A DNA stretch of 64,000 bases from an uncultured Actinomycetota bacterium (GCA_963778505.1 CAVZUH010000002.1:472674-536673); one strand, 5' to 3'. Positions 1 to 64,000 are shown, counted from the stretch's first letter. A program made the numbers and translations. The notes: generated by a model from the sequence alone, not told the origin.

Positions 1-1147
1 GGGAGGCTTCGACCGGTGGATCTGCCTCAGATTCGAGCGGTCTGGGGTCAGGCTCGTCACGTCGCGGTTGGGGGGACGCGACGGGCGCCTCCTCCGGGTT
101 CGCCTCCTCCGGGTTCGCCTCCTCCTTGCTCCCTTCATCAGGGCCTTCAGTGCTCGCCAACTCACGGAGCGTTCCATCCTCGTCAGCTGTCGCCACCTCG
201 TCGACCCGGGTCATCTCGGCGATCGGCATCTCGTCGAACAACGGCATCGGTGCGTCTGGCGGTGGCCGAAGCGCGACCTCGCGCGCGAGCTGGCGATACG
301 CCTCCGCGCCCTTGGACTTCGGGTCGTAGACGGTGATCGGCTGTCCGAAGCCGGGGGCCTCGGAGAGCCGAACCGTTCGCGGGATGATGACCCCGTAGAC
401 GAGGTCGCCGAAGTACCGCTGCACCTCATGGACGACCTGCTCGGAGAGCTTCGTACGGGGGTCGAACATCGTCATGACGATGCCCGAGAGTCTGAGGCCG
501 GAGTTGATGTTCTGCTGGACCAACGAGACGTTTCGGAGAAGCTGCCCCAGCCCTTCGAGGGCGTAGTACTCGCACTGGATCGGGACGATGAGCTCCTCCG
601 CCGCGGTGAGCGCGTTGATGGTCAGGAGACCGAGCGAGGGAGGGCAGTCGAGCAGGATGAAGTCATACACCCCCTCCAGGACGGGCTCGATCGCCTTCTT
701 CAGACGGGACTCGCGGGAGAACTGAGAAACCAGTTCGATCTCGGCTCCGGCCAGGTCGATCGTCGCGGGAACCGCGTGGAGACGGTCCACGGGCGTGTGC
801 ACGATGGCGCGTTCGATGTGCGCTTCTGAGACGACAACGTCATACACCGTGACCTCTCGTGCGTCGTGCCGGATGCCCATCCCGGTCGAGGCGTTGCCCT
901 GGGGATCGAGGTCGGCCACCAGCACCCGGTAGCCGATGTCTGCGAGCGCAGCGCCGAGACTGACGGCCGTCGTGCTCTTGCCCACGCCGCCCTTCTGGTT
1001 CGCGATCGCGATGACCCGAGCCCTACCGGGGGTCTCGGGAACGACGGGTCGCTTCTTCTTCGAGGCCGCTTTGGGCTTGGGCGGGGCGGAGTCATCGGTC
1101 GTGGCCGGCGCCACGGGATGAGTCGTGCTGGCGGAGACCTTGCTCAC
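1..1147 (-). CDS. parA: ParA/Soj chromosome-partitioning ATPase. The reading frame stays open past the ATPase domain all the way to the window edge, with no stop.
   Basis: Manual minus-strand translation from a GTG at 1145-1147 gives MSKVSASTT...RVIAIANQKGGVGKTTTAVSLGAALA (deviant Walker A), then ...LDCPPSLGLLTINAL...PRTVRLSEAPGFGQPITVYDP. After about residue 290 an acidic/Pro-rich tail runs to coordinate 1 without a stop. It lies directly downstream of rsmG, as in other actinobacterial oriC regions. Confidence 0.85.
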   Translation of the reverse strand, partial: MSKVSASTTHPVAPATTDDSAPPKPKAASKKKRPVVPETPGRARVIAIANQKGGVGKSTTAVSLGAALADIGYRVLVADLDPQGNASTGMGIRHDAREVTVYDVVVSEAHIERAIVHTPVDRLHAVPATIDLAGAEIELVSQFSRESRLKKAIEPVLEGVYDFILLDCPPSLGLLTINALTAAEELIVPIQCEYYALEGLGQLLRNVSLVQQNINSGLRLSGIVMTMFDPRTKLSEQVVHEVQRYFGDLVYGVIIPRTVRLSEAPGFGQPITVYDPKSKGAEAYRQLAREVALRPPPDAPMPLFDEMPIAEMTRVDEVATADEDGTLRELASTEGPDEGSKEEANPEEANPEEAPVASPQPRRDEPDPRPLESEADPPVEAS

Positions 1148-1180
1148 TGTCGGGTCATGATAACGATGGGTCCGCCGCTT

Positions 1181-1744
1181 TCAAGAGTCGGTTCTCCGAC
1201 GGCTCGCGACTCGGGCGTCAGGAGGCGTGTCGTCGCTCTCGAACGTCCTGCCTGCCCAATAGATGAGGTCTCCTCCCGGAACCAGCAGATCCCGGGCGAC
1301 GATCCAGCTTCTCGCGCAGCGTCTCCGAATCCCCTCGCGAGACACACATCGAAGCCCGAGGCGAGCTCCTCCGCCGGCTCGGGGAACACCCGCACGTTCG
1401 GGCAACCGGAGCGTCTCGACGGCCAGCTCGAGGAAGGCGGCTCTGGCTTGCCGGGGCTCGGCCAGCGTGACTTCCAGGTCGGGCCGCGCCACGGCGATCG
1501 GGAGACCAGGGAGCCCGGCGCCGGATCCGAGGTCGACGATCCGTTCGGCCCCCGCCGAGAGATGGGCGATGGCCCGGAGGCTGTCCAGGATGTGGCGGGT
1601 CCGGAGGTGACCGGCATCGGAAGCGGCGACCATGCCCCGTGGAACCGCCTGAACGACGAGCAGCTCCTCATAGCGGCCCAGGCTCTCGACCTGAGCAGGG
1701 GAAAGCTCGACCGAGGTCCAACCCTCATGTTTCACGTGAAACAC
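1181..1744 (-). CDS. rsmG: 16S rRNA (guanine527-N7)-methyltransferase RsmG (GidB)
   Basis: A 187-aa ORF containing the SAM motif VDLGSGAGLPGLPIA, found between jag and parA. Confidence 0.88.
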   Translation of the reverse strand: MFHVKHEGWTSVELSPAQVESLGRYEELLVVQAVPRGMVAASDAGHLRTRHILDSLRAIAHLSAGAERIVDLGSGAGLPGLPIAVARPDLEVTLAEPRQARAAFLELAVETLRLPERAGVPRAGGGARLGLRCVSREGIRRRCARSWIVARDLLVPGGDLIYWAGRTFESDDTPPDARVASRRRTDS

Positions 1745-2311
1745 GGTCCTTCCGGAGATCCGCCGTGCCCGGGCCGCCTAGAGTGACGCGAACGACCACG
1801 AACCTATCGGGATCGACGCCTTCGGAGACACTCTCCAAGCCCTCGAATTCGGCAACGACGTCGTGGACCAGCTTGCGCTCGTAGGCGTTCATCGGGTCGA
1901 GCTGCTCCTCCGCGCCCGGTCCTTTGGACCCGCTCAGCGACCTCCCGGGCCTGCTCGACCAGCCGGTCCTCCTGGCGCTTCCGATAGTCACCGACGTCCA
2001 CCAGCACCCGGATCCGGTCGTCCAGCCGGCGCCCGACCGCGGTGCGGGCGAGCTCCTGGATGGCATCCAAGCGTCTGCCCGTGGCGACCGATCAGCAGGG
2101 CCATGTCGTCCTCGGGCCCGTCGACGATGTCGACGTAGACATGTCCCCGACGGGTCGTCGGCTCCGCGATGGCATCGATCCCCATGCGCTCGAGGAGCTC
2201 CTCGACGAAGTCCGCGATCGCGTCCGCCTGCTCCTCGAGGTCGGCCCCGTTCAAGTCCGCAGACCCACCTTCCCTTTGTCGGCGCTCAGATCCTTCTGGC
2301 TCTCGATCCAT
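1725..2311 (-). CDS. jag: Jag/KhpB R3H-domain RNA-binding protein, split over three frames by two frameshifts
   Basis: N-terminal and KH-like segments (ALLIGRHGQTL / DAIQELARTAVGRRL) and an R3H segment (NAYERKLVHDVVAEFEGLESVSEG..DRFVVV) lie in three overlapping minus-strand ORFs (1988..2311, 1804..2070, 1725..2066). Confidence 0.8.
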
Positions 2312-2314
2312 CGT

Positions 2315-3423
2315 CTACCTCCCGGGCCGCTTCGGGCGGTTGGGCCCCGACCCCTTCGGTCGTCCCGACCCCCCGCCCTTCGTGCTTCTTCCCAGAGTCC
2401 CTCCCTGTTCCCGGTGAGCGTGGAGGGGGCTTGCGCAGGGGCTCGGGTTCGCCCTGGCGGCGTTTCCGCTCTTCTCGGCTCGCTCCATCAGCTGGCCCAT
2501 GAAGCCGCGCCTCGGCTTCTCGGGACTGGCAGTGCGGCCTTCGCCTTCGCTTGCGTGAGGCGACGGTCCATCGCCTGCCGGCCCGATGTGTCCGAGTCGG
2601 AGCATCACGGCCTGCTGGCCGATCTGGAAGAGGTTGGACACGGTCCAGTAGAGGACCAGGCCCGCTGGGAATGCGAAGCCGAAGATCCCGAACATGATCG
2701 GCATGACCTTGGTGATGATCTGAGTCTGCGGGTTCTGGGCGGAGGTGGGCGTCGCCTTCTGCGTCTGGCGACTCGAGTAGAAGGTCGGTTCCGATCATGA
2801 GCGCCAGCAGCGCGTAGTACGGGATGCGGTCGGGGATCGGAGTCTCCGCAGTCGAGCGTGCTCGCCCGTCGGCTTCCGTTCTCGTGTTGAGCACCGGGAC
2901 CGTCTTGCCCGCCTGCTGACGGCGAGCACTGGAGGTTCATGGGAGGAAGTGCATCCCTGGCTGGTTGTGCTGCGTGACGTCGATGAAGAGCTGCGAGTCC
3001 TCGGGAAGGTGGTTGTCCTTGTACTCGACCACCCCTGGGGTGATCCGGGTCCGGGTCGGGCTAGGGGACCGGAGCTCGGATCACTGAGTACATCGCGATC
3101 AGGATCGGGAACTGCAGGAGGAGGGGAAGGCAGCCGCCGAGCGGGTTGACGCCGTACTCCTGGTAGAGCTTCATCGTCTGCTCTTGGACCTTCTGCTTGT
3201 TGCCCTTGTACTTCTTCTGGATCTCCTTGATCTTCGGCTGCAAGGCCTGCATCGCTTGCATCGACTTGATCTGCTTGATGCCCAGGGGGAGCAGGACCAC
3301 TCGGAAGACGATCGTCAGGATGATGATCGCGAAGCCGAAGTTGCCCGTTAGGTCGTAGAGCCACGCCAGCAGCCACCCGATCGCGTCGAGGAGAGCCTGG
3401 AAGGGACCGATCTCAGCCAGCAT
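2315..3423 (-). CDS. yidC: Membrane protein insertase YidC, frameshifted in its central part
   Basis: N-terminal ORF 3061..3423 ([12 protein letters not shown]...[21 protein letters not shown]...[20 protein letters not shown]) and C-terminal ORF 2315..2704 ([31 protein letters not shown]). The 2704-3061 segment reads in another frame ([13 protein letters not shown]). Confidence 0.88.
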
Positions 3424-3716
3424 GGGCGGCCGATCCAGGCGGCCGCATGGGGGTCGCGTATGGCGACATCATACGACACGTCGTGGCTCGGTACCGGGTC
3501 GATGCCACCTCGCCCGAACGGGTTGCAGCGCAACACACGTCGGAGCGCCAAGAGAGAACCCCTCATGGCTCCGAGGGTCCGGATCGCCTCCTCAGCGTAG
3601 CGGGAGCAGGTGGGGGAGAAACGGCACTGACCGCCGAGCCACCCGGACGAGCGTGAGGCGGTACGACGCGGATCACGCCGAGCGAGGACAGCCGCGCGGG
3701 GGCGCCGGCGCGCCAC
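3418..3716 (-). CDS. yidD: Membrane protein insertion efficiency factor YidD
   Basis: [46 protein letters not shown] motif. The annotated ORF reads into yidC, but a third-frame TGA overlapping the yidC ATG marks the likely true end. Confidence 0.75.
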
Positions 3717-3738
3717 AGGAAGCGTCGCCGCAAGGACG

Positions 3739-4014
3739 TCATCGGCGCTTCTCTCCGCGCCCGAGCAGTTCGGTCATCTCGGTGATCAGATCCTGGGTTC
3801 GGGCGTCCCGGATGGCCTCGCGAGCCACCAAGACGATGTCGTGTCCTTCCATCCCACGCGGCGCGACCTCGCGGATCGCCGCCCGAAGGACCCGCCGGGC
3901 TCGGTTCCGCTGCACCGCGCCGCCGATCTTCTTGCCGGCGACCAGCGCGAACTCCCCTGAGCCGGGAGCGACAAACAGTACCACCCGCTTGCCGTGCACC
4001 GGCTCTGCCGTCAC
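3739..4014 (-). CDS. rnpA: RNase P protein component. The N-terminus may be longer or frameshifted.
   Basis: GTG start; [11 protein letters not shown]...[14 protein letters not shown]...[13 protein letters not shown]. Typical position between rpmH and yidD. Confidence 0.85.
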
Positions 4015-4053
4015 GGAAGACGCGCTGGATCCCCGCGGTGCGCACCGTCTCGG

Positions 4054-4203
4054 TCAGCCGGAGACGCTGAGGCGGCTGCGGCCCTTGCGTCGTCTCGCGG
4101 CGAGGATCGACCGGCCGGCACGCGTCCGCATCCGCAGACGGAAGCCGTGCGTCTTCGCCCGGCGGCGCGTGTTCGGCTGGTACGTGCGCTTTCCCTTGGC
4201 CAT
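4054..4203 (-). CDS. rpmH: 50S ribosomal protein L34
   Basis: [48 protein letters not shown], within ORF 4054..4308. Confidence 0.97.
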
Positions 4204-4462
4204 CCTCGGATCCCTTCGCGAAAGGAAGGCCGGCAACGCGCCGACCGAAGAGCGGAAGTATACGGAAACATCCCAGGATGGAGGGGTTGACAACAGAAAG
4301 TGCGTCAAGACGCGCCGGTCGCTCGCGTTGGGGAAAAACCCCGGTGCTATAGTCCGCCCCGCACTTCCCCGGGGTGATGGGGCCCCCGGCGATCCTCCGA
4401 CCCCGACGACCTCCCCGGATGTGGGTTATCCACCGGTGTGGAAAGGTTCTGTGGAATCTCAG
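4204..4462. promoter_or_regulatory. rpmH-dnaA divergent intergenic region: candidate dnaA promoter and DnaA boxes
   Basis: A TATAGT at 4348-4353 preceded by TTGGGG-like and TTGACA (about 4286) elements. DnaA-box-like GTTATCCACC at 4425-4434 and inverted TGTGGAAAG at 4437-4445, just upstream of the dnaA start. Confidence 0.55.
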
Positions 4463-5888
4463 ATGGCAGTCGCATTGCCTGATCAGGAAGCGAGACGGAC
4501 CTGGTCGGCCGTGCTCGATCGCGCTCGGACCGAGCTCCCGGAGACCACGTTCCTGATGTGGTTCACCGACGTCCGCCCGATCGCACTCCGCGATCAGGTG
4601 CTCTCCCTCGCCGTCCCGAGTCAGTTCGTCCGAGAACGCCTGCAGCACAACCATCTTGGGCTCATCGAAGAGGCCGCCGAGGAGACGCTTCGGCCACCCG
4701 GTCAAGATCGAGATGGACGTGGACGAAGGCGATCCGCCACGAGGAGGGTCCGCTGGTCGACTGACCACCGCGCCTCCGGCCGCGTACGCGGCGATCGGCG
4801 CGCCGGCGACCGCCGCGCCGGTGCGGGCAAGGCCGCTCGGCGCACCCGGCCTCCCGTTCCCCAACTACACGTTCGACGCGTTCGTCCCCGGCCCGTCGAG
4901 CCGGTTCGCGCACGCCGCCGCGATGGCGGTGGCCGAGGCGCCGCTGTCGACCGCGTACAACCCGCTGTTCATCTACGGTGGCACGGGACTCGGCAAGACG
5001 CACCTTCTGCTCGCGATCGGGCATCACATCTGGCGATTGATGCCCGACACGCGGATCAAGTACGTGACCTCCGAGCAGTTCGTCACGGAGTTCATCAAGG
5101 CCGTCCGCGAACGACAGGGTGACGCCTTCCGCCACAAGTACCGCGAGGTCGACATCCTGCTCGTCGACGACATCCAGTTCCTCGCCAAGCGCGAAGAGAC
5201 GCAGACCGAGTTCTTCCACACGTTCAACCATCTCCACGGCGCCGGCCGCCAGATCGTGATCGCGTCGGACCGGCCGCCGCACGAGCTCTCGGGGCTCGAG
5301 GAACGACTGGTGAGTCGGTTCCGGTGGGGGCTCTGCGTGGACGTGCAGCCGCCGGACCTCGAGACGCGCATCGCGATCCTGCAGTTGAAGGCCGAGCGCG
5401 AGAACATCCCCGCGGTCGTGCCCGAGGTGATCGAGTTCGTCGCGTCCAAGTTCGACCAGTCGGTCCGCGAGCTCGAGGGCGCCCTGGTGCGCGTGGTCGC
5501 CTGGTCGGAGCTCACGCGCCAGCCGATCGACATCGAGCTCGCGGAGCGAGCCTTGCAGGACCTGATCCCGCAGACGGAGCACGAGATCCCGCCGCCGCTG
5601 ATCCTCGAGGAGACGGCGACGTACTTCCAGCTCTCGACCGGGGACCTGGTCTCGAAGTCGCGCTCGCGACCGCTCACGCAGGCGAGGCACATCGCGATGT
5701 ACCTGATGCGCGAGTGCACCGGCCTGTCCCTGGTCAAGATCGGCGAGATCTTCGGCGGTCGCGACCACACCACGGCCCTCCACGGCATCAAGAAGGTCGA
5801 GGACGAGATGCGCTCTCGCGACGACACGTTCCGTCAGGTCCAGGACCTCACGCGGATCATCCGCAGCCGTGTCCGAGGATTGGTGTGA
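4463..5888 (+). CDS. dnaA: Chromosomal replication initiator DnaA, with one frameshift (extra C near 4688)
   Basis: N-terminus MAVALPDQEARRTWSAVLDRARTELPETTFLMWFTDVRPIALRDQVLSLAVPSQFVRERL in the 3422.. frame. AAA+ and domain IV (GGTGLGKTHLL, LLVDDIQFL, ...HTTALHGIKKVE) in frame 4656..5888. Confidence 0.95.
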
Positions 5889-6112
5889 TGTCGGTGGACA
5901 ACTTCGCGGAGATGGCCGTTCTCGACCGACGCAGTGACCGGGCCCGGAAGAGCGCCAAGGACGTCCTCCACCGGTCCGTCCCACATGTCGGACATGCCCG
6001 CTACGCTGCGCGAACACCCCACTTCTCCACATTCTCCACCGCCCCTACTACTGCTCTCCACTCGAAAAGAACCTAAGAAGCAACAGCCTGGGAACAGGCC
6101 ACGACCGGGAGG
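5889..6112. other. Putative oriC core: a DnaA-box cluster in the dnaA-dnaN intergenic region
   Basis: Five or more boxes of the form T(T/C)NTCCAC(A/C/T): GTTGTCCACC (5889-5902, minus), CCTCCACC (5966), TTCTCCACA (6022), TTCTCCACC (6031), CTCTCCACT (6053). Only 224 bp long. Confidence 0.6.
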
Positions 6113-7225
6113 TTGAGGATGAAGTTCCGATGCGACCGCGACGACCTGTCCGAGGCGCTGCAGACCGTGCAGCGCGGCGTGTCCTCGCGCCCGGGGATCC
6201 CCGCGCTCACCGGCGTGCTGCTGGAGGCGGCGGACGACGGCACCCTGACGCTCACGACGACGGACCTCGAGGTCTCGGCACGGCTCTCGATCGCGCGTCC
6301 AGGTCCAGGAGGCCGGCACGGCACTGGTACCGGCGCGGCTGCTCGCCGACACCGTGAAGTCGCTGTCCGAGGCCCCCGTCGATTTCGAGACGGACCAGTC
6401 CCAGGCGCATATCCGCTGCGCTGCGTATGAGGGCGCGCTCCGGCTGCTGCCCGCCGACGACTTCCCGGGGCTGCAGGAGCCGTCGGGGACCGCGATCTCG
6501 GTCGAGCCCGCGCGCGTTCGCCGAGGCCGTCGGCGCAGGTCGTCCCGGGCGGCCTCGAAGGATGAGGCCAGGCCGGTCCTCACCGGTGTGTTGCTCGAGA
6601 TCAGCCGGGAAGGCGTGGTCCTGGTCGCCACGGACTCGTACCGCCTCGCCGTCCGCGACCTCGTCGCGACGGCGGACGGCGAGGCGAAGGCGATCGTCCC
6701 GGAGCGCGCGTTGACCGAGGCCGGCCGCGCGGCGGTCGACCAGAAGGCCGGGGTGGAGGCGTTCGGTCAACGCGTCGCAGATCGCGTTCCGGGTCGGCTC
6801 GCTGACCCTGACGTCTCGCCTGATCGAAGGCGAGTTCCCCAACTACCGGCAGCTCCTGCCGGAGACCTGTCGAGAGCCGGCTCACGATCTCGCGCCAGCA
6901 GCTCCTCGAGGCCGTCCGCCGGGTGGGGCTGCTCGCGCGCGACACGACGCCCGTGCGGTTGGAGTTCAACGCGCTCGGCGTGAAGCTGTCGTCGTCCAGC
7001 CCGGATCTCGGGCAAGCCGTCGAGACGGTCGAGGCCCGGTACGAGGGCGAGGACCTCGTCGCGGCGTTCAACCCGCAGTACCTCGTCGACGGGCTGACCG
7101 CGGCCACCGGCGAGAGCGTGCGGATCGACGTCCGCGACGGGCTCAAGCCCGGCGTGATCCGCGGCGAGGGTGACGAGCTCACCTACCTGGTGATGCCGGT
7201 CCGGCTCCCCGCCGCGGTCGGCTGA
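6113..7225 (+). CDS. dnaN: DNA polymerase III beta sliding clamp, with four or more frameshifts
   Basis: MKFRCDRDDLSEALQTVQRGVSSRPGIPALTGVLLEA.., ...RPVLTGVLLEISREGVVLVATDSYRLAV.., ..LTSRLIEGEFPNYRQLLP.., ..PVRLEFNALGVKLSSSSPDLGQAVETVEARYEGEDL...YLVMPVRL, spread over ORFs 6113, 6354, 6427 and 6923. Confidence 0.92.
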
Positions 7226-7249
7226 CGCGCCGGCGAGTCGCGGACACGG

Positions 7250-8349
7250 ATGCACCTGGAGTGGCTCGAGCTCCGGGATTTCCGGAACCACCGGCGCACG
7301 GCCGTGGATCGCATCCCGGACGGGCTGACGGTGGTCGTGGGACCGAACGGCGAGGGCAAGACCAACCTGCTGGAGGGCATGTTCTTCCTGTACGCGCTCC
7401 GCTCGCCCGAGCACCTCGACGAACGCGCCGCTCGTCCGCGAGGGTGCCGATGTGGCGTACGCGCGGGGGGAGTTCGAGGGGCATCGAAGGGCAAGCCCTC
7501 GTCGAGGTGGAGATCCCGCGCAAGGGCGCGAGCCGCGTGAAGCTGAACAAGAGCCCGCTCCGGCGCAAGCGCGAGCTCCGCCGGCAGGTGCGGTCGGTGC
7601 TCTTCGGTCCCTTCGATCTGCCGGTGGTGATCGGTGATCCCTCGAAGCGCCGCGACCTCATGGATGAGGCCGTCGTCGCGCTCTGGCCGCTGAAGGACGG
7701 GCGTCTCATCCGCGTACGACCGAGCGCTGCGGCAGCGGAATCGTCTCCTCAAGGAATGGGAGGGCGGTCGCGGGGCGCCGGCCGGGATGGATGCCTGGGA
7801 CGAAGAGCTCGATCCGCACCGGGGTGCCGGTGATCGAGGCACGCGGTGAAGCCGTCGCGCGCCTCGCCACCGGCGCGTCCGTCGAGTTCGAGGCGCTTGC
7901 CGGCTACGAGCTCCTGGTGACGTATGCGCCCAACGTTGACGGTCCCGGCGCCGTCGAGGAGGCCTTCCGCGAGCAGCTGGCGGCGCGGCGGGCCGACGAG
8001 CTCGTCCGCAGGACGTCGCTCGTCGGCCCACATCGCGACGACCTCACCCTGGCGGTCCGTGATCTCGGCGCACGAGCGTTCGGTTCGCACGGTGAGACGT
8101 GGGCGCGCCGCGCTCTGCCTGCGTCTCGGTCTCGCCGCGGCGATCGCGGCCGAGATCGGGGAGCCGCCGCTCTTGCTGGTCGACGATCCCTTCAGCGCTC
8201 TCGACCCCAGTCGCCGCGACCGCATCGCGCAACGGCTCGCGGACCGAGGCGGCCAGGTCGTGATCAGCGTTGCGGACGAGGCCGACGTGCCGTCGGCTTC
8301 GTCCGCGGTCTGGCAGGTCGAAGCCGGCGCCGTGACGGTGAGGGCCTGA
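7250..8349 (+). CDS. recF: DNA replication/repair protein RecF, with three or more frameshifts
   Basis: MHLEWLELRDFRNHRRTAV..GLTVVVGPNGEGKTNLLEGMFFL (Walker A), later ..VRRTSLVGPHRDDLTL.. and ..LLLVDDPFSALDPSRRD... across ORFs 7250, 7261, 7791 and 7924. Confidence 0.9.
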
Positions 8350-8372
8350 CGTGCCTGCTTCGAAAGGGTTCC

Positions 8373-8695
8373 GTGGGCGGAACGGCGATCCCGAGCCGGG
8401 AACCGCGTCGAGCTCGGCGAGGTGATCGACAATCTGATGGCCGAACAGGTCTTCGCGCGAGGGCATGCCGGTCGCGCGGCTCGCCGCCGCGTGGTCCTCG
8501 GTGGTGGGGGAGCGGCTGGCATCGGAGACCGCCCCGGCGACCCTCGAAGCGGGCGTCCTGACCGTCACGGCGACCTCCGGCCCGTGGGGGGTGCAGGCCC
8601 GATTCCTGCACGAGGAGATCCGGCGCCGGGCGGATGAAGCACTGGGCGGCGGCCAGATCACCTCCGTCCGGATCGTCGTGCGAAACCGCAGGTAG
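8373..8695 (+). CDS. DUF721 / DciA-like protein, with one frameshift; the start is uncertain
   Basis: ..ELGEVIDNLMAEQ.. then LAAAWSSVVGERLASETAPATLEAGVLTVTATSGPWGVQARFLHEEIRRRADEALGGGQITSVRIVV. This is the conserved position between recF and gyrB, equivalent to Mtb Rv0004. Confidence 0.7.
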
Positions 8696-8834
8696 AAGGG
8701 CGATTTCCGCGACTCGAAATGCCGTTCGAGTCACCTCCGATTGGTAGAATGTAGGGGTTCGTGCGACGGCCCCGCGCACGCCCCCGAGCTGCGATGCGTG
8801 GGGCGGCCTGCGCGGGGCACTGACGGGAGGACGA

Positions 8835-10767
<1,933 letters not shown>

Positions 10768-10774
10768 GAGGGGT

Positions 10775-14375: not shown

Positions 14376-14421
14376 ACGCTTGGCCAGGCCCACGCCATCC
14401 ACCCGATAGGAGGCTGTTCCC

Positions 14422-51651: not shown

Positions 51652-51654
51652 CCC

Positions 51655-55010: not shown

Positions 55011-55034
55011 CCCTGGTTGAAACCGAAAGGTCCA

Positions 55035-55883
55035 CTACGCCGTGAGTGCCGTGACGGCGGTGCGTTCCTCGAGGGTGAGACCGCGGAGCGGTGGCCGAAC
55101 GTCGGCATGGCGCAAGACGCCGCGATCCGTCAGCACCTGCTTCAACGCCGCATGGAACGGGATCCCCTCGAGGCGCTCACGGAGCTCGGTGACGCGAAGG
55201 TGGGCTTCGGGACTGTGGTCGTGCACGAGGGCGGCGACGACCTCCGGCCACGCCGAGGCGAGGCCCGAGACGGCGCCTACCGCGCCGCGTTCCATCCCCG
55301 CGCGCACGAGAGGCTCGGAGCCGACGAACACGTCCATGCCGTCGATGAGGTATGGCTCGATCGCGTCGAACGGCGTATCGCTCACCTTCATCCCGACGAC
55401 GTTGGTCTGTTCGAGGCGAAGCTGTGTGACCACGTCCACCGGGATCGCGTAGCCGCTACGGGCGGCGAACTCGTACACGTAGAACGGCAAAGGGTCGCAT
55501 GCGTCGGCGGCGGAACGCAGGTGGTCGAACAGCTCCCGCGCTCCGAGCGGGAAGTAGGGCGGCGCGATCACCGCGACGGCGTCCGCACCGATCTCGAGCG
55601 CGTGAGCGGCGAGCGCGATCGTGTCGCGGGTCGTCTGCGCTCCCGCGTGGATCGCGACCTGGAACCCGACGGGTCGAACCGCGAGGAATGCCTCGGCGAC
55701 GCGCCGGCGCTCCTCGAGCGTCAGGAGGACACCCTCCCCCGTGGTCCCGCAGGCGAGGAGCCCGTCGACGCCCCCGTCGGCCAGGAAGGCGACGAGCGAA
55801 GCGAAGTCATCCGGGTCGACCGACCGACCACCGTCCTTGAGCGGCGTCACCGCCGCTGCGATCGCTCCGTGCAGGCGCTGCAT
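55035..55883 (-). CDS. DapA-family aldolase (4-hydroxy-tetrahydrodipicolinate synthase / HOG-aldolase-like)
   Basis: Intact 282-aa ORF: ..AIAAAVTPLKDGGRSVDPDDFASLVAFLADGGVDGLLACGTTGEGVLLTLEERRRV..GMKVSDTPFD... Confidence 0.75.
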   Translation of the reverse strand: MQRLHGAIAAAVTPLKDGGRSVDPDDFASLVAFLADGGVDGLLACGTTGEGVLLTLEERRRVAEAFLAVRPVGFQVAIHAGAQTTRDTIALAAHALEIGADAVAVIAPPYFPLGARELFDHLRSAADACDPLPFYVYEFAARSGYAIPVDVVTQLRLEQTNVVGMKVSDTPFDAIEPYLIDGMDVFVGSEPLVRAGMERGAVGAVSGLASAWPEVVAALVHDHSPEAHLRVTELRERLEGIPFHAALKQVLTDRGVLRHADVRPPLRGLTLEERTAVTALTA

Positions 55884-55941
55884 CGTCGGGATGCTACCCG
55901 GGGCGTACCATGGAACTGCGAGCCGAGGAGGTGCCAGGAAG

Positions 55942-56367
55942 ATGACAGACGTGCGCCGCTACTTGGTGGTCGCGAACCAGACCCTCGGTGGAGGCCACCT
56001 GGTGTCGCTCCTGCGGGAGCTCGGGGAGAAGCCTTCGATGTTCCACGTGCTCGTCCCCGCGAGTCCTCCCGGGGACCATCTGTGGACCGAGGCGGAGGCC
56101 AACGCGCTCGCTCGCAGACGGCTCGAGGTTGCACTCGAGCGTTTCCGGAAGCTGGGGATCGAGGTGACCGGCGAGGTCGGAGATGGGAAGCCGCTGCAGG
56201 CGATCGACGATGTCCTCTCGCGTGAGTCCTTCGACGAGATCGTCCTGTCGACGCTCCCACCGCGGCTTTCGCGATGGCTGAAGCTCGACCTCGTGCATCG
56301 CGTCGAGTCCGCCTACGGGCTGCCGGTCCGCCACGTGATCGCGCCCAGAGAGACCATCGAGGTCTGA
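55942..56367 (+). CDS. Hypothetical protein (Rossmann/USP-like fold suspected)
   Basis: MTDVRRYLVVANQTLGGGHLVSLLRELGEKPSMFHVLVPASPP...FDEIVLSTLPPRLSRWLKLDLVHRV.. Confidence 0.35.
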   Translation: MTDVRRYLVVANQTLGGGHLVSLLRELGEKPSMFHVLVPASPPGDHLWTEAEANALARRRLEVALERFRKLGIEVTGEVGDGKPLQAIDDVLSRESFDEIVLSTLPPRLSRWLKLDLVHRVESAYGLPVRHVIAPRETIEV

Positions 56368-56383
56368 TCCAACCGAGGGAACG

Positions 56384-57298
56384 CTAGCCCCGGGCGAACA
56401 CGTTCCGGATCGCGAGCCACAGGTTCCGCCCCGGATGCTCCGCGAGGCGCCGCATGAACCAGGGATACCAGTGGGTCCCGTAGCTGATCAGGACGCGGAC
56501 GCGGAAGCCCTCACTCGCGAGTCGCCGCTGATCTGCGAGGCGGATCCCGTAGAGCATCTGGATCTCGTAGGTGTCACGGTCGAAGCCGGCGGCGGCCGCT
56601 CGGCGCTCGATCTCCGAGAGCAGCTGCACGTCGTGGGTTGCGAGGGCGAGGCGGCCGCCGCGGGACCATCGGAGGAACTCGAGCGACAGCTTCTCGAAGG
56701 TCGCTCGGATCCGGTGGCTGTTGTGTATCGCGACGTCGGCTGGTTCCCGGTACGCGCCCTTGACCAGGCGCACCGATGCACCGGCGGTGAGGAGATCGGC
56801 GATGTCCTGCGGCGTGCGACGGAGGTAGGCCTGGATGCACACTCCGGTGTTCCCGAGCTCCTCGTGGAGTCGGCGGTAGATCGCGAGGGTCGGCTCCACA
56901 TAGGGGACGGACTCCATGTCGAGGAAGAGGTGCTTCCCCGTCGCAGCGCAGCGCTCGGCGAGACGGTGGAGCCGCCGATACGTCTCCTCGGCGTCGAGGT
57001 CCAGGCCGAGGTGCGTCGGCTTCACCGACACCTCCGCGTCGATGCCCCGTTGCTCGATCAGGTCCATCAGCCCGAGGTATTGCTCGGCAACGGCGTCGGC
57101 ATCCGCCGAGCTCTCGACGTTCTCGCCGAGGTACGTGATCGTCGCTGGGATGCCTTCGGCCGCAAGGCGCTCCGCGGCATCGATCGCGTCCTCCATCCGC
57201 TCGCCGGGCATGAAGCGCGCGACGGTCGCTCGCACGAATCGGAAGCGCGGGAGGTGCGCTGCCGAGCCACCTGTTGCGAGCGGCGAGGAGGATCGCAT
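56384..57298 (-). CDS. Proline dehydrogenase
   Basis: Intact 304-aa ORF: ..ATITYLGENVESSAD..VSVKPTHLGLDL..HLFLDMESVPY..VRLVKGAY.. (ProDH TIM-barrel). Confidence 0.8.
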   Translation of the reverse strand: MRSSSPLATGGSAAHLPRFRFVRATVARFMPGERMEDAIDAAERLAAEGIPATITYLGENVESSADADAVAEQYLGLMDLIEQRGIDAEVSVKPTHLGLDLDAEETYRRLHRLAERCAATGKHLFLDMESVPYVEPTLAIYRRLHEELGNTGVCIQAYLRRTPQDIADLLTAGASVRLVKGAYREPADVAIHNSHRIRATFEKLSLEFLRWSRGGRLALATHDVQLLSEIERRAAAAGFDRDTYEIQMLYGIRLADQRRLASEGFRVRVLISYGTHWYPWFMRRLAEHPGRNLWLAIRNVFARG

Positions 57299-57348
57299 CG
57301 CGCGCCGGGTTCATCCGTGCATCACCGCCGGATGATAGGGGCGACGGG

Positions 57349-58635
57349 TCAGAACTGCTGCTGCTCCGTGGAACCGTCGAGGGCGAGAGTAGACGCGCCG
57401 CCAGAGATCGCTCGCGAGACCAGGTCGAAGTAGCCGGTCCCGACCTCCTGTTGGTGTCGGGTCGCGGTGTAACCCTCTGGCTCGAGTGCCATCTCCCGCT
57501 GCTGGAGCCGGACGTACGCGGTCATCCCTTCCTCTGCATAGCCGTGGGCGAGCTCGAACATCGAGGCGTTCAGCGCGTGGAAACCGGCGAGCGTGACGAA
57601 CTGGAAGCGGTAGCCCATCGCGGCCAGCTCCTTGCGGAACCGCGCGATCTCCTCGTCGTCGAGGTGCTGTTTCCAGTTGAACGAAGGGGAGCAGTTGTAC
57701 GCGAGCACCCTGTCCGGGAACCGATCCAGGATCGCCTCGGCGAAGACGCGAGCCTCCTCGAGATCGGGAGTCGACGTCTCGCACCAGAGCATGTCGGCAT
57801 GTCGCGCGTACGCGAGCCCGCGTGCGACCGCCGGCTCCATCCCATCGCGCACGAGGAAGAATCCTTCGGGCGTGCGCTCGCCGGTGAGGAAGCGGCGGTC
57901 CCGCTCGTCGATGTCGGACGTGAGGAGAGTGGCCGAGAGCGCATCGGTCCGCGCGATCAGGACCGTCGGCACATCGGCCACGTCGGCCGCCAGCCGGGCG
58001 GCGGTGAGCGTTCGCTCGAACTGCTCGGTCGGCACGAGCACCTTGCCGCCCAGGTGGCCGCACTTCTTCTCGGACGCGAGCTGGTCTTCGAAGTGCACGC
58101 CCGCGGCTCCCGTCTCGATCATCGAGCCCATGAGCTCGAAAGCATTCAGGTGCCCGCCGAACCCGGCCTCGGCGTCCGCGACGATCGGTGCGAGCCACTC
58201 GCGGGCTGCCGTGCCGCTCGACCAGGCGATCTGGTCCGCGCGCCGCAACGCGTTGTTGATCCTGCGGACCACGGCGGGCACGGAGTTGGCCGGGTACAGC
58301 GATTGGTCGGGGTACGTCTGGCCCGCGAGGTTCGCGTCCGCGGCGACTTGCCAGCCGGACAGGTAGATGGCCTTCAGTCCCGCCTTGATGCACGCCACCG
58401 CCTGTCCGCCGGTGAGACACCCCAGCGCCGCGACGTGCTCCTCGTTCTGAAGGAGATCCCAGAGCCGCTCCGCGCCGTGCCGAGCCAGGGAATGTTCCTG
58501 CTTGAGGGAGCCGCGGAGGCAGATCACCTCCTCCGCGGTGTACGGGCGCGCGACGCCAGCCCAGCGGGGGTCGCGTGCCCACCGCCGCTCAAGCTCCTTG
58601 GCTTCTTGTGTGATCCGCCTCCGAACGTCGTCCAT
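57349..58635 (-). CDS. aceA: Isocitrate lyase
   Basis: Intact 428-aa ORF: ..[41 protein letters not shown].. (KKCGH signature). Confidence 0.93.
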
Positions 58636-58845
58636 CTCTGGCTCCTCTCCGGTGCACGGCGCCTGGAAAAGGGAACGACCTCTCGTCGAGAGGTCGATAG
58701 GCGCGGCCGAGGTGAGTGGGCGCGCCGCTAGGCGCGGGGTACTCGGGAGCAGAAGTTGAACGGCCGTTCAAACATGCTTAGCAGATGGTCCCACACGCGG
58801 ATGGCGGAAGTCAAAACCACACCGTGCCCAGTACAGGCGATCAGC

Positions 58846-59415
58846 TCAGGAAGCCGGACGTCGGGCGCGAAGAGCCCTGCGGACCACCGGTCGAGTGGGC
58901 TTCCGCCGTGCGACTTCTCGGAACCCGGCACGGTCGTACATGGACTTCGCCCCGAAGAACATCACATCCGGATCCAACTGCTCCTCGGTATCCACCGGGT
59001 AGGCCTCCACGAGCCGGGCACCGTGAGACCGTGCGTGATCCACCGCCGCCCGGAGCATCCGCTGGGCCAACCCCTTGCCCCGGACACTTCGGTCGACGAA
59101 GAAGCACATGATCGACCAGACTGGCCGATCGTCGACCGGTTTCATGGCGGGCGAGCGGCGGAGCTTCGGGTAGTCATCTCGAGGACCCAGCGAGACCCAC
59201 GCGACCGGGACGCCGTCCTCGTATCCGATGAGCCCGGGGACGTTGCCTCGGTCGACGAGCGCCTTCATCGCTCGCCGGTTCTCGGCGCCGACCCCAGTGT
59301 CCGTTCCGGTCTTCCGGTAGAACATGCAGAAACACGTTCGCACCACGGGCCGATCGAACATCTCGACGAGGTCGGGCCAACGGTCCTTCGTCACGGGGTG
59401 TGCTTCGAAACTCAC
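58846..59415 (-). CDS. GNAT-family N-acetyltransferase
   Basis: Intact 189-aa ORF: ..FVDRSVRGKGLAQRMLRAAVDHARSHGARLVEAYP... Confidence 0.7.
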   Translation of the reverse strand: MSFEAHPVTKDRWPDLVEMFDRPVVRTCFCMFYRKTGTDTGVGAENRRAMKALVDRGNVPGLIGYEDGVPVAWVSLGPRDDYPKLRRSPAMKPVDDRPVWSIMCFFVDRSVRGKGLAQRMLRAAVDHARSHGARLVEAYPVDTEEQLDPDVMFFGAKSMYDRAGFREVARRKPTRPVVRRALRARRPAS

Positions 59416-59445
59416 TCGGGCAATCTACCGGTGGTGGCCGGGTGG

Positions 59446-60321
59446 TCAGGGCACGATCTTCGAGATCGGGATCTCGAGGATGTCGGTGGCACCGGCCGTC
59501 TTCAGCTCGGGGATGAGCTTGTTCACGCCTTGTTTGTCCACGACGGTCTCGATCGCGTATCCCCCTTCGGAGAGAGGGGAGACCGTCGGCGCTTTCATCG
59601 ACGGGACGACGTCGATGACCGCCCGCAGCCTTTCCTCGCTCACATTGAGCTTGATCAGCACGCGGCCCTCGGCGCGGAGGGCACCCAGCAGCAGCGTCTG
59701 AAGGTCATCCATCGCGGCCCGCTTGGTCGGCTCGTCCAGCGCGTCCCGGTTCGCGATCATCACGGGCTCAGAGGTGAGGAGCGTCTCGAGGATCTTCATC
59801 CCGTGCGCTCTGAGCGTGTTCCCCGTCTCGGTGATGTCCACGATGGCATCGACGATCTCGGGGACCTTCGCCTCCGTGGCGCCGTAGGACCACACGACCT
59901 TCACGGGGATGCCGAGGTCTTCGAAGAACCGTTCCGTCAGCTTCAGGAACTCGGTCGAGATCCGCGTACCGGGCGGGATCTCCTTCGCGCTGTTCGCAGG
60001 GTGCTCGTTCGGGACGGCAAGCACGACCTGGGTGCCATGCCCGGTTCCAGAACGAGCGTAGGAGAGCGTCGTCAACACCTCGACGTCGGCCTCGGTCTCG
60101 GCGATCCAGTCCTGCCCGGTGATGCCCATGTCGAACAGGCCGTCCTGCACGTAGAGCGGGATCTCCTGGGGACGGAGGATCGAGACGCGCTCGATGCGAT
60201 CATCGTCCACCGCGCCGTGGTAGTCGCGGCCGGAGCCGCGGCGCACGCGGAGGTCGGCCGCTTCGAAAAGACGGAGCGTTTGCTCCTCGAGGGAGCCCTT
60301 GGGGATGACGAGCTTCAGCAC
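59446..60321 (-). CDS. hisG: ATP phosphoribosyltransferase (long form)
   Basis: GTG start VLKLVIPKGSLEEQTLRL..; ..VQDGLFDMGITGQDWIAE..; C-terminal regulatory domain ..RVLIKLNVSEERLRAVIDVVPSM... Confidence 0.9.
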   Translation of the reverse strand: MLKLVIPKGSLEEQTLRLFEAADLRVRRGSGRDYHGAVDDDRIERVSILRPQEIPLYVQDGLFDMGITGQDWIAETEADVEVLTTLSYARSGTGHGTQVVLAVPNEHPANSAKEIPPGTRISTEFLKLTERFFEDLGIPVKVVWSYGATEAKVPEIVDAIVDITETGNTLRAHGMKILETLLTSEPVMIANRDALDEPTKRAAMDDLQTLLLGALRAEGRVLIKLNVSEERLRAVIDVVPSMKAPTVSPLSEGGYAIETVVDKQGVNKLIPELKTAGATDILEIPISKIVP

Positions 60322-60385
60322 ATGAACCTCGTGGTCGGTGTGAGGACGGAGTGTAGCCAGCCGTGGAAGGGATAGCGTCGGGGTC

Positions 60386-60781
60386 ATGGAACGACCGCCG
60401 CCCGCGCCGATCCAGGTCGACAGCCCAGAACTGGAGGCGCGACGGACGGCTCTTTCCGTCGCGAGATTCGGCCTCGGCTATCGAGTGCGCGAGGTCGATG
60501 CGTTCCTCGATGAAGCCCTCGACGTGATGCGCTCACTCGTCGAGGAGAACGAGGCACTTCGGGCCGGTCCGTCACGCGAGCACCCGTTGTTCGGCACGAC
60601 GGATACGAGACACCGGCTCACGCCGCTCGACGTGCAGGCGAGGGTGTTCGAGGTTGGGCGCTTCGGGAATGGATACAAGATGCGAGCGGTCGACGAACTC
60701 CTGGATGATGTGACCGACATGCTCGCGGTGCTCATCGCTGAGAACGAGGCCCTACGGATCGCAGGATCCACGTCAGGATGA
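60386..60781 (+). CDS. Small protein with two DivIVA-type N-terminal domains
   Basis: ..ARFGLGYRVREVDAFLDEALDVMRSLVEENEAL.. and ..VGRFGNGYKMRAVDELLDDVTDMLAVLIAENEAL... Intact. Confidence 0.6.
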   Translation: MERPPPAPIQVDSPELEARRTALSVARFGLGYRVREVDAFLDEALDVMRSLVEENEALRAGPSREHPLFGTTDTRHRLTPLDVQARVFEVGRFGNGYKMRAVDELLDDVTDMLAVLIAENEALRIAGSTSG

Positions 60782-61818
60782 TGGACATGAAGAACCCTCG
60801 GGCAGACGGTTTGGCGATGCCCGCGGAGTTCGCTCCGCATCAGGGAACGCTGATGGCGTGGCCCGCCCGCGACGAGTGGTGGGGAGCGCTGCTGGACGCT
60901 GCCCGGGATGAGTGGGCCGGCGTCGCCCGTGCGGTCGCCGCATTCGAGCCGGTCACGATGGTGTGCAACCCCGGGCAGGCAGACGACGTCCGCCGACGCT
61001 GCGGCGCCGGCGTCGAGCCGTTGGAGCTGTCGATCGACGATTCATGGATGCGGGACAACGGCCCGATCTTCGTCACCGACGAGAGGGGGAACGTCGCCCT
61101 CGTCCAGTTCCGCTTCAACTCCTGGGGCGAGAAGTTCCTGCCGTACGACAACGACGCGCGTGTGCCGGAAGCACTGGCGTTGCATCTCGGCGTGCGTCGC
61201 TACCAAGCACCGTTCGTGTTGGAAGGCGGTTCGTTCTTCGTGGACGGCGAGGGAACCCTGCTGACCACGGAGCAATGTCTCCTGAACCCCAACCGGAACC
61301 CGTCGATGAGCCGCGAGGAGATCGAAGACGGTCTCCGCTCGTTCCTCGGCGTCGACACGGTGCTCTGGCTCCCGCACGGACTCGTCGAGGACCGCGACAC
61401 CGATGGGCACATCGACGGGCTCGCGCAATACCTACGGCCCGGGGCGGTGATGGTGTCGGTCGCGGCTGGGGACGACGATCCGAACGCCGCGAGGTTCGAG
61501 GAGGACCGGGCGGTGTTCGTGCGATCCCAGGACTCCCGCGGACGGTCGATCGAAGTGCTGGACGGGCCCGTGAACGCCTGGGTCGAGGTCGAGGGGGTTG
61601 GTCGGGTCGTGATCCCGTACCTGAACTTCTACGTCGTGAACGGCGGGGTGATCGTCCCTGTTGGCGGGGTCCCGGAGGACGAGGCCGCTCTCGAGGTGAT
61701 CGGGGAAGCGTTCCCCGATCGTGAGGCCGTCGGCGTTCCGGCGGCGCTGGTCTCTCACGGAGGCGGTGGTCCGCACTGCATCACGCAGCAGGTACCGGCC
61801 GGATCCTTCGTCAGCTGA
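60778..61818 (+). CDS. aguA: Agmatine deiminase / porphyranase-type peptidyl-arginine deiminase family protein
   Basis: ..[73 protein letters not shown] (catalytic Cys). The start overlaps the upstream stop (ATGA). Confidence 0.8.
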
Positions 61819-62152
61819 GACTGCGGAAGAAGCAGGAACGCCGGCCCGTGTGGCAGGCGGCACCCTCCTGGTGGACACGAGCGAGGAGGACGTCGCCGTC
61901 GCAGTCCACACGGAGCTCCTCCCAATGCTGGACGTGGCCGGACGTGTCGCCCTTGCGCCAGTGCTCTTGCCGCGACCGGCTCCAGTAGACCATCCGGCCC
62001 TCGTCGAGCGTGCGGGCTAGCGCCGCGCGGTTCGACCAGGCGAACATCAAGACGTCGCCGTTCCCGACGTCTTGAACGATCACGGGGATCAATCCCCGAT
62101 CGTCGAAGACCAATCCGTCGAGGTCGACACGTTCTCGTTCGTCAGGGCTCAT
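61811..62152 (-). CDS. hisI: Phosphoribosyl-AMP cyclohydrolase
   Basis: ..[75 protein letters not shown]. Confidence 0.9.
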
Positions 62153-62155
62153 GAC

Positions 62156-62914
62156 TCACAGCCTCACCGAGATCCCTCGAGAGGCCAGGTGCTCCTTGAC
62201 CTCGCGGATCGTGAGATCGCCGTCGTGCCAGCGCGAGGCGGCGAGGACGGCGTCGGCGTGGCCCTCGGTGAGCGCCTCCGCGAAGTGCTCCGGCGTGCCG
62301 GCGCCGCCGGACGCCACCAGCGGCACCGCGACGGCACCGGCGATCGTGCGCAGCAGCTCGAGGTCGTAGCCCTCGCCGGTGCCGTCGCGGTCCATCGAGG
62401 TCAGCAGGACCTCGCCCGCTCCGTGACGTGAGGTGGCCTCACCGGCCCACTCGACGGCGTCACGCCCGGTCGGTGTGTGCCCTGCGTCGACGTAGACCTC
62501 CCAGCCGGCGCCGTGCTGCTTCGCGTCGATCGCGACCACCATGCATTGGGTTCCGAACCGGTCGGCGCATCGGGAGAGCAGCGATGGGTCGCGCACGGCG
62601 GCGCTGTTCACGCTCACCTTGTCGGCCCCGGCCCGCAGCAGCGCCTGCACGTCGTCCTCGTTCTTGATCCCGCCGCCCACGGTGAGAGGGATGAAGACCT
62701 CCTCCGCGGTTCGGGACACCACGTCGAGCGTCGCCGCACGCTCCTCGAGCGTCGCGGTGATGTCGAGGAACACGAGCTCGTCGGCCCCCTCCCGGTCGTA
62801 GTGCGCGGCGAGCGCGACCGGGTCGCCCGCGTCGCGAAGCTCTCGGAATCGCACGCCCTTCACCACTCGGCCGGCGTCGACATCGAGGCACGGGATCACC
62901 CGCTTCGCGAGCAT
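62156..62914 (-). CDS. hisF: Imidazole glycerol phosphate synthase cyclase subunit
   Basis: [48 protein letters not shown]... Confidence 0.93.
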
Positions 62915-62933
62915 CGGCGCCTCCCTCCGGCGG

Positions 62934-63635
62934 TCATCCTCGTGTCACCTGCGACAGCTTCAACGTCTTCTCGTACAGCGCCTTCCCGGTGACCGCCGCC
63001 TCGCAACCCAGGTCGCGGAGGGCCCAGACGTCTTCGGCGTTGCGCACGCCGCCGGAGGCGATCACGGGCCGGTCGGTCAGCTTCAGCACCTGTCGGTACA
63101 GGCTGAGGTCGGGGCCGTCGAGGGTACCGTCGCGCGCGATCGCGGTGACCAAGAGGCGTGGCGCCCCCGCGTCGTTCAGGTGGGAGACGGTGACTTCGAG
63201 CTCCGGTCCCTCCTCCCGCCAGCCATCGATCATCAGGCGGCCGCCGCGGACGTCGACCGCGACCACCATCCGTTCGGCGAACTCTTCCACCGCGCGCCCG
63301 ACGAACGAGACGTCCGCGGCGGCCGCCGTCCCGAGGATCGCGCGCGCGGCACCGTCCTCCAACACGGCGGCGGCCGCCTCGAGCGAGCGGATCCCCCCGC
63401 CCACCTGGACGGGCACGACCACCGCACGGCAGATGTCCCTGATCGCCTCGCGGTTGTCGCCCTCGCCCAGTGCGGCATCGAGGTCGATCACGTGCAGCCT
63501 GCGGGCACCCTGCTCTTGGAACCGCTCCGCGACCTCGACGGGATGGTCGTCGTAGGCGGTTTCATCCATCGGATCGCCGCGGCGCAGCCGGACGGCTCTC
63601 CCGCCTCGGAGATCGATCGCAGGGATCACGATCAC
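62934..63635 (-). CDS. hisA: Phosphoribosylformimino-AICAR-ribotide isomerase (HisA/PriA)
   Basis: GTG start [21 protein letters not shown]..; ..[13 protein letters not shown]..; ..VQVGGGIRS..; the GTGA overlaps the hisH stop. Confidence 0.9.
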
Positions 63636-64000
63636 CGGGCGACCGCCTTCACGAAGTTCGCGTAGATCGCGAGCCCGGCCTCGCCCGACTTCTCGGGGTG
63701 GAACTGCGTCGCGAACACGTTGTCGCGTGACGCCACGGCCGCGAACCGTCGTCCGTGCTCGGTGAAGCCCACAGTGTCGTCGTTCGCATCCGGTGCGTAG
63801 GAATGCACGAAGTAGAACCTCGTCCGATCGGGGATCCCCTCCGAGTACGGGTGCGGGCGCTGCCAGGCGACCTCGTTCCATCCGATGTGCGGCACCTTGA
63901 CGCGGTCCGGGAGTCGGCGGGACACGCCGGGAAGCACCCCGAGCCCCGTCTCCGGGTCCTCGTCGCTCCGCTCGAAGAGCACCTGCATGCCAACGCAGAC
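63632..64000 (-). CDS. hisH: Imidazole glycerol phosphate synthase glutamine-amidotransferase subunit (C-terminal part; the gene continues past the window end)
   Basis: ..[47 protein letters not shown]. Confidence 0.88.
   Translation of the reverse strand, partial: VCVGMQVLFERSDEDPETGLGVLPGVSRRLPDRVKVPHIGWNEVAWQRPHPYSEGIPDRTRFYFVHSYAPDANDDTVGFTEHGRRFAAVASRDNVFATQFHPEKSGEAGLAIYANFVKAVAR

Follow-up and report, generated by a model that had tools for sequence, protein, structure and literature searches.

Clustered one-base insertions in an uncultured Actinomycetota contig are almost certainly technical and tend to match the alleles of relatives

Pseudogene-rich genomes, such as those of Mycobacterium leprae and recent endosymbionts, carry many frameshifts, but their lesions are inherited and shared and of mixed kinds, their replication genes are intact and selection on the broken genes is relaxed. 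Transcriptional slippage and programmed frameshifting, as found at poly(A) tracts in endosymbionts, can rescue broken frames and need homopolymeric or slippery motifs, while the classical Nanopore homopolymer error is expected to be deletion-biased or balanced. Nanopore-only assemblies retain residual single-base indels that split genes and depend on coverage, where short-read assemblies are clean (Sereika et al. 2022, PMC9262707). According to the Strainberry paper, Flye collapses conspecific strains of ~98.65% identity into one consensus (PMC8302730). Here we analyse the single-base frame disruptions in a 64,000-nucleotide (nt) stretch from an uncultured Actinomycetota bacterium (GCA_963778505.1 CAVZUH010000002.1:472674-536673; hereafter the window), which carries the replication genes dnaA, dnaN, recF, gyrB and gyrA. 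In contrast to the lesions of pseudogene-rich genomes, those of the window are private, hit dnaA, dnaN, gyrA and gyrB and are nearly all +1, with the proteins under purifying selection; like slippage systems the window is broken in its DNA reading frames, but no slippery or homopolymeric motif is present at the sites. There is also likeness to the residual Nanopore indels, which also split genes and are missing from short-read assemblies, and to the strain-collapsed metaFlye contigs of the Strainberry paper, in which strains ~98–99% identical are merged, as the window switches between lineages at ≤1% and ~3% divergence. It differs from Nanopore homopolymer indels in the placement of the extra bases outside homopolymers, in a 12:1 excess of insertions and in an inserted base that matches an allele.

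The references used here are of two kinds: sister loci 83–86% identical to the window (L001–L010, L092–L099, L101 and L102), and same-species contigs 98–99% identical (L081–L091, L100 and L103–L112), the latter found through homologue searches and contig look-ups. Scanning a single genome for each species with the C-terminal half of GyrB as query returned 80 loci, every one from an uncultured Actinomycetota metagenome-assembled genome (MAG), the nearest being syntenic over window positions 180–20,700 at 83–85% DNA identity. Several of these nearest loci are Microflora Danica (MFD) MAGs, for which the source paper describes assembly from Nanopore reads alone with Flye and a single Medaka round, and mentions no polishing by short reads (PMC12313526). 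Among the same-species contigs, L081, an ENA contig, is 97.9% identical to the window over 22,616–43,442, and more than 20 Logan short-read contigs (runs SRR25721987–SRR25722127) are 98–99.4% identical, with spans at 30.4–35.2, 35.6–40 and 50.7–54.6 kb. The species thus recurs within one study, in more than 20 short-read runs of a single accession series, and accurate sequence for re-polishing exists.

Frame segments were called with a reference-free seven-state codon-usage Viterbi hidden Markov model (HMM), which splits the window into 184 segments, with same-strand frame switches dense in 1.2–26 kb and 34–50 kb and lacking within genes elsewhere. Indels were mapped in three MAFFT alignments (window 1–21,000 with 8 sister loci; 26,001–47,500 with L081, L100–L102 and two Logan contigs; 41,001–64,000 with L092–L099), and an event was counted only where the window stands alone among the aligned sequences, which we call private. 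For 22.6–26.4 kb we used pairwise alignment to L081 together with a coinciding HMM switch; the interval 20.7–22.6 kb is without reference. Positions of insertions are uncertain by 1–2 bases where the relatives are only 85% identical. Three other procedures were set aside: gapped tblastn, which aligns through shifted regions and masks closely set shifts, so that DNA multiple alignments were used instead; a pairwise window–L081 count (57 'window extra'), which is too high, as multi-reference alignment attributes ~25 of these to deletions in L081, mostly in short homopolymers; and the polarising of indels through whichever codon frame fitted best over the 75-nt flanks, which was too noisy and wrong at sites that Illumina contigs had settled. 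An apparent event at 54828 was also discarded, its removal creating a frame switch in an intact open reading frame (ORF), and is either a real difference or an alignment artefact.

The three alignments contain 73, 33 and 32 private one-base insertions in the window and 4, 4 and 3 private one-base deletions. Sisters assembled from Illumina reads (L003, L094–L099 and L101) have 0–2 private +1 insertions each, and the sisters in the 1–21 kb alignment have 1–10 each against the 73 of the window. Merged, the map holds 158 frame-disrupting private indels, comprising 138 one-nt insertions, 9 two-nt insertions and 11 one-nt deletions, and in 1.2–20.3 kb the frame switches of the HMM fall on the mapped events. 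Translated matches place the split in GyrB at 9556, where the two frames that match sister residues 1–273 and 272–674 meet.

These events are far from evenly spread, in agreement with a reading of the sequence alone (the sequence-only reading). Densities are 4.14 events per kb in 1–20.3 kb, 1.31 in 20.3–26.4 kb, 0.26 in 26.4–34.15 kb, 3.72 in 34.15–50 kb and 0.36 in 50–64 kb (Table 1). The variance-to-mean ratio on 2-kb bins is 3.5 (chi-square p = 1e-10), and a likelihood-ratio test favours five blocks over a uniform rate (p = 5e-20). At the dirty-block rate, the probability of two or fewer events in 26.4–34.15 kb is 2e-11, and that of five or fewer in 50–64 kb is 4e-18. Block C was read against L081, L102 and the Logan Illumina contigs L082–L091, and over 50.7–54.6 kb the Logan contigs L103–L112 are 99.1–99.4% identical to the window and differ in indels only at those mapped; both clean blocks are well covered by references, so that their low counts are not an artefact of detection. 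Within the dirty blocks the spacing is near random (roughly exponential, coefficient of variation 1.1–1.2).

Table 1. Features of the window, with private frame-disrupting indels and restoration, the latter measured as best single-ORF coverage of the sister protein before and after deletion of the mapped bases.
Feature	Position	Strand	Events	Coverage before, after (%)	Remarks
Clean left edge	1–1205				no private indel before 1206; parA-like gene in a single frame
parA-like	14–1180	minus			intact; Pfam AAA_31 match 2–176 of 177 in one frame
jag-like	left end of window	minus	7
yidC	left end of window	minus	9
rnpA	left end of window	minus
Dirty block A	1206–20300		84		~4.1 per kb
dnaA	~4463–5888	plus	3		after rnpA; split by +1 insertions, restorable
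dnaN	6119–7225	plus	6	42, 100	split by +1 insertions, restorable
recF	7250–8349	plus	5	26, 99	split by +1 insertions, restorable
gyrB	8835–10767	plus	1	60, 99	split by +1 insertion, restorable
gyrA	10775–13231	plus	9	50, 100	split by +1 insertions, restorable
tRNA-Ile	14302–14377
Genes of 14.4–20.2 kb	14.4–20.2 kb		25
Intermediate block B	20301–26400		8 (insertions)		1.3 per kb; giant S8 peptidase gene
S8 peptidase gene	20248–26149				~5.9 kb
tRNA-Ala	26181–26254
Clean block C	26401–34150		2		26437 (intergenic) and 30123; coiled-coil, M15, M23 and HK-like genes
Coiled-coil gene	26598–30982				~1461 amino acids; ORF as read 26538–30149
Dirty block D	34151–50000		59		3.7 per kb
Sharp boundary	34160–34190				first insertion (34185) and 5- to 6-fold jump in SNP divergence start together
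GSDH			7	39, 100
CoxL-like			4
S9 peptidase			2	48, 100
Penicillin amidase			10	23, 99
ABC transporter ABC-1			8	20, 100
ABC transporter ABC-2			at least 10
fadD			8
Lactamase-B/rhodanese			4
Clean block E	50001–64000		5		51412 (deletion), 51656, 51668 (deletion), 53654, 57258 (intergenic)
sirA				59, 97
48-residue ORF	52464–52610	minus			between sirA and cysH
131-residue ORF	60386–60781	plus			DivIVA-domain match

The extent of the broken and the clean blocks needs some revision with respect to the sequence-only reading. It had listed parA among the disrupted genes, and this gene proves intact, while the disruption of jag, yidC, dnaA, dnaN, recF, gyrB and gyrA is borne out, with 1–9 mapped events each. 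The cargo up to 26 kb is broken as claimed as far as 20.3 kb, beyond which block B is intermediate rather than fully dirty; its extra bases relative to L081 lie at 23430, 23878, 23959, 24665, 25605 and 25845, each with an HMM frame switch, and the switch placed at about 22520 is found by the HMM only, at ~22512 (extra base at 22513). Likewise the broken stretch said to span 34–54 kb holds up to 50 kb, the clean block beginning near there and not at 54.5 kb; the damage reported for cysH and sirA amounts to three isolated events (the deletion at 51412, 51656 and 53654/53656), confirmed against Illumina contigs, and nothing more. From 54.3 to 64 kb there is no coding disruption and the HMM shows single-frame genes, in keeping with the intact 54.5–64 kb that had been described, and the intactness of the M15, M23 and histidine kinase-like (HK-like) genes is confirmed by Illumina contigs. 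The eight or more disruptions given for fadD are exactly 8 insertions, and the dnaA junction near 4688 maps to 4687.

Deleting the mapped bases reduces the HMM segments from 184 to 96, now gene-sized and in a single frame, and single-ORF coverage of the sister proteins reaches 97–100% for ~20 genes (Table 1). The corrected DnaA, DnaN, RecF, GyrB and GyrA match their NCBIfam equivalogs (TIGR00362, TIGR00663, TIGR00611, TIGR01059 and TIGR01063, respectively) end-to-end and above curated cut-offs. Corrected proteins are 90–98% identical to those of relatives, with GyrB and GyrA 96–97% identical to those of a sister species.

A single event alters the picture of clean block C. The large coiled-coil gene, which lies on the plus strand and was read as an intact 3.6-kb ORF from the sequence alone, is in fact truncated by an extra G at 30123, where L081 reads GCGCGATC-ACCCAACA and has a gene called of 1457 amino acids; the HMM frame switch at 30123/30124 is gone after correction. 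No Pfam family is on record for the orthologues of this gene in L081 (1457 amino acids) and L102 (1371 amino acids). It lies upstream of the M15 and M23 peptidase genes and a gene for a 437-residue protein, an order kept in L081 and L102; the 437-residue protein has no Pfam hit and is variously named histidine kinase by JGI, and its more distant homologues are ~715 residues long, some with tropomyosin-like PF00261 hits.

Several lines of evidence make it almost certain that the indels are technical artefacts, as the sequence-only reading had proposed in preference to pseudogenes. Illumina-assembled contigs of the same species are free of the window's insertions at every site they span: Logan contigs do not have those at 34185, 34476, 34744, 34923, 34979, 51656 and 53656 and do carry the base missing at 51412, and L100 is without the window's insertions in 35.6–40 kb. 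Non-coding DNA of the two dirty blocks is hit in proportion to its length (6 events where 6.3 are expected, and 2 where 1.7 are), so that selection never saw the indels. Long-read contigs of the same species or genus (L081 and L092) are broken too, but elsewhere: L081 has four extra bases at 33282–33856, inside the HK-like gene (intact in the window) or just beyond it, and the breaks in its GSDH, CoxL, S9 and amidase genes are at positions other than the window's. Neither L081 (98% identical) nor the Logan contigs share the window's lesions, so these do not behave as inherited lesions, and 63% of window–L081 single-nucleotide polymorphisms (SNPs) in block D fall at codon position 3, with no sign of relaxed selection.

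In the public record L081 is ENA ERZ25039541 contig_79207, with four pieces of GSDH, two of CoxL and four of S9, and L092 is ENA ERZ25039510 contig_10981, with 53 private +1 insertions. Databases of proteins drawn from contigs of this type will hold many fragments, for example P0070, P0161 and P0130.

What kind of error this is can be read from the inserted base. One-nt insertions outnumber one-nt deletions by 138 to 11 (binomial p = 4e-29). The extra bases examined had been described as G/C, yet their composition (49 C, 45 G, 25 A and 18 T) mirrors that of the genome. In 102 of 137 insertions no identical neighbour is present, and the check for siting in homopolymers finds only three of the 137 in runs of four or more bases; the pattern is therefore not that of classical Nanopore homopolymer error, being neither in runs nor deletion-biased or balanced. 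Only 25.5% of insertions adjoin the same base, as against 48.3% for a random base (p = 7e-8), a value that fits the 28.6% expected if the inserted base must differ from one neighbour, and this fit suggested an allele pair at each site, with the insertion as one of its two members. In agreement, 70 of 100 unambiguous events insert a base that a relative carries at one or the other neighbouring alignment column, compared with 26.7% for random sites and bases (p = 2e-19). With the null matched for flanking dinucleotide and inserted base, hits observed and expected are 39 and 20.0, 13 and 7.0, and 18 and 6.4 in the three independent alignments (z = 5.6, 2.9 and 5.4). The distance from an insertion to the nearest window–L081 mismatch is uninformative (median 9 vs 12 nt), and at the insertion sites a search for sequence motifs, GATC and methylation-like contexts included, gave only weak 4-mer enrichment (z ≤ 3.9 among 256 4-mers), which we do not regard as significant.

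The same signature is found in an independent contig. L092 contains 53 private one-base insertions against 7 deletions, and 25 of 37 inserted bases match a relative's allele (z = 4.7). L081, with 13 insertions and 16 deletions, has its deletions in short homopolymer runs. Judged from the patterns of the window and L092 on the one hand and of L081 on the other, two error modes coexist in these assemblies, the window showing mostly the allele-linked one.

Further evidence comes from the left edge of block D, where errors and divergence set in together. Mismatches between the window and L081 number 3–12 per kb from 22.6 to 34.15 kb and 25–38 per kb from 34,169 on (close to the boundary, from ~5 to ~31 per kb at 34169), and those between the window and the Logan contigs jump likewise. 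The divergence between L081 and the Logan contigs is 9–17 per kb on both sides of ~34,170, and since this distance is steady, the window is what changes lineage. At the extra differences beyond 34.17 kb the window has the L101 allele in 66% and L081 has it in 25%; together with the excess at third codon positions, this sharing indicates that the extra SNPs are genuine variation. The clean stretch 50.7–54.6 kb differs from the Logan contigs by ~7 SNPs per kb. The tested clean stretches therefore follow the common lineage (≤1%), and the tested dirty block follows a haplotype ~3% divergent or is mixed with it. The contig is thus probably a strain mosaic across ~34.17 kb, and linkage across this point should not be relied on as the haplotype of one genome.

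We consider it fairly likely that the insertions arose from mixed haplotypes. In such a scheme the genes of the organism would be intact, and the ~150 spurious single-base insertions would stem from a long-read metagenome consensus in which reads of two diverged haplotypes, from co-occurring strains or cross-mapping relatives, were collapsed onto one contig. At variable sites, where reads carry either X or Y, the consensus would keep both alleles (XY), the consensus step sometimes preferring XY, which costs two cheap read deletions, over either X or Y alone, which costs many mismatches. Clean blocks would be those where the pile-up is effectively one haplotype, and in the dirty block about one in ten variable sites would have become an insertion, the insertion density being about one tenth of the SNP density. 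Of the causes named in the sequence-only reading, a chimeric consensus is the one favoured by the matching of alleles and by the haplotype switch at the onset near 34,170. The more general proposition, that one-base insertions are footprints of strain polymorphism and that frameshift density marks collapsed strains or haplotype switches, seems to us slightly better than evenly balanced. We infer the assembler or polisher step that yields XY, the sequencing platform of the window and a shared cause for the edges near 1.2, 20.3, 26.4 and 50 kb. The Strainberry paper (PMC8302730), in the part available, describes no conversion of SNPs into insertions, a link that we draw from the allele-matching test.

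A number of observations weigh against an origin in mixed haplotypes. A literature search for a consensus error in which both alleles are kept returned only general statements on collapsed strains and indels, the assembler-level step being our own reasoning. Of the unambiguous insertions 30% match no sister allele, and the depletion at codon junction 1|2, the only junction not touching the wobble base, has the expected direction but is only marginal (21 vs 40 and 35; p = 0.048). The link between divergence and error is drawn from one boundary (34.17 kb) and one clean stretch; between 22.6 and 26.4 kb divergence from L081 is low, yet there are 1.6 insertions per kb, and at the 26.4-kb block edge a haplotype change is not seen. 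The same-species references cover 22.6–43.4 and 50.7–54.6 kb, with 1–22.6 and 43.4–50.7 kb outside them, and the strict private rule undercounts, as residual frame switches in ABC-2 and in 1–4.2 kb after correction indicate.

Plain uneven or low read depth, with random errors surviving polishing and no mixture of strains, is the strongest competitor, although we regard it as unlikely as a sufficient cause. Nanopore-only data need ~40x for a near-finished consensus and leave frameshifting indels below it (PMC9262707), and the error load does vary among sister Nanopore contigs (7 private +1 insertions in L093 against 53 in L092). Random errors, however, cannot know the alleles of relatives, which the inserted bases match at 2–3 times the context-matched expectation; they would not be expected to begin at a haplotype switch; and the avoidance of homopolymers with a 12:1 insertion bias is unlike the Nanopore homopolymer indels of PMC9262707, while the deletions of L081 do sit in short homopolymer runs, unlike the window's errors. 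Uneven coverage, which had also been suggested, may nevertheless contribute.

Patchy polishing, whereby some stretches were corrected by short reads, a hybrid step or polisher chunks and the rest left as draft, appears rather improbable. Blocks of several kb to more than 15 kb with sharp edges are compatible with chunk-wise processing, and plain uneven or low depth as the source of the draft errors would be compatible with it too. Block lengths of 7.75, 15.85, ≥19 and ≥14 kb, however, point to no common chunk size, at the 34.17-kb edge the divergence in real SNPs changes, an effect that a boundary of polishing would not have, and the pipeline of the closest relatives describes no short-read step (PMC12313526).

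Deliberate or synthetic corruption, by random insertion of bases in chosen blocks, had been raised from the sequence alone and is very improbable. The strong insertion bias, the genome-like composition of the inserted bases and their near-exponential spacing would suit it, but random corruption would not reproduce sister alleles, nor avoid duplicating a neighbour; independent ENA contigs are alike, L092 with the full signature and L081 with private indels of its own elsewhere, and the block edge coincides with a natural change of haplotype. Least credible of all is real biology, either pseudogenes of a genome in decay or +1 recoding or editing on a massive scale, which has in its favour only the presence of the frameshifts themselves and against it five essential single-copy genes with 1–9 shifts each, corrected proteins that remain close to those of relatives and match equivalogs end-to-end, purifying selection on the SNPs, frameshifts that are not depleted in coding DNA, conspecific Illumina contigs without the shifts and long-read ones broken at other sites, and sites with no motif in common.

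The window has some further features of note. G+C content is 66–73% across 2-kb windows, and at the third codon position of real genes it is 0.83–0.95. The giant S8-peptidase gene of block B encodes CarboxypepD_reg and Malectin domains and its product has 1858 residues in L081; this stretch is present in the window and L081 and absent from sister L002, in which the flank almost abuts tRNA-Ala, and may be a lineage-specific insertion upstream of a tRNA gene. The 48-residue ORF has two CxxC pairs (CPFC...CEVC) and is without a Pfam family; it is conserved in all sisters (49 residues), identical in at least 22 contigs and indexed in 62 blocks of the collection, and the sulfite reductase operon could have in it a small zinc-ribbon partner. 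The 131-residue ORF matches the DivIVA domain (PF05103, E = 1e-11) and fills ~330 nt missing in all aligned sisters, flanked by the hisG side and by a gene for a peptidyl-arginine deiminase (PAD_porph).

The uneven frameshift density is thus correctly observed and statistically firm, and what was observed is a technical artefact. The caution that the sequence-only reading urged over claims of novelty in the corrupted blocks is justified, as reading frames in the window are no ground for regarding any gene as pseudogenised, fused, split or new, and frame-based inference is unsafe in 1.2–26.4 kb, in 34.15–50 kb and at 30123. Annotation by ORF, like the clustering of proteins, will yield fragments from such contigs. 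Biological interest is low, and the allele-linked insertion signature may offer a modest methodological lead. If general, it would be an error mode distinct from homopolymer errors, detectable without reads through non-homopolymer +1 insertions that match a relative's allele, and could be used to flag and correct chimeric segments of MAGs.

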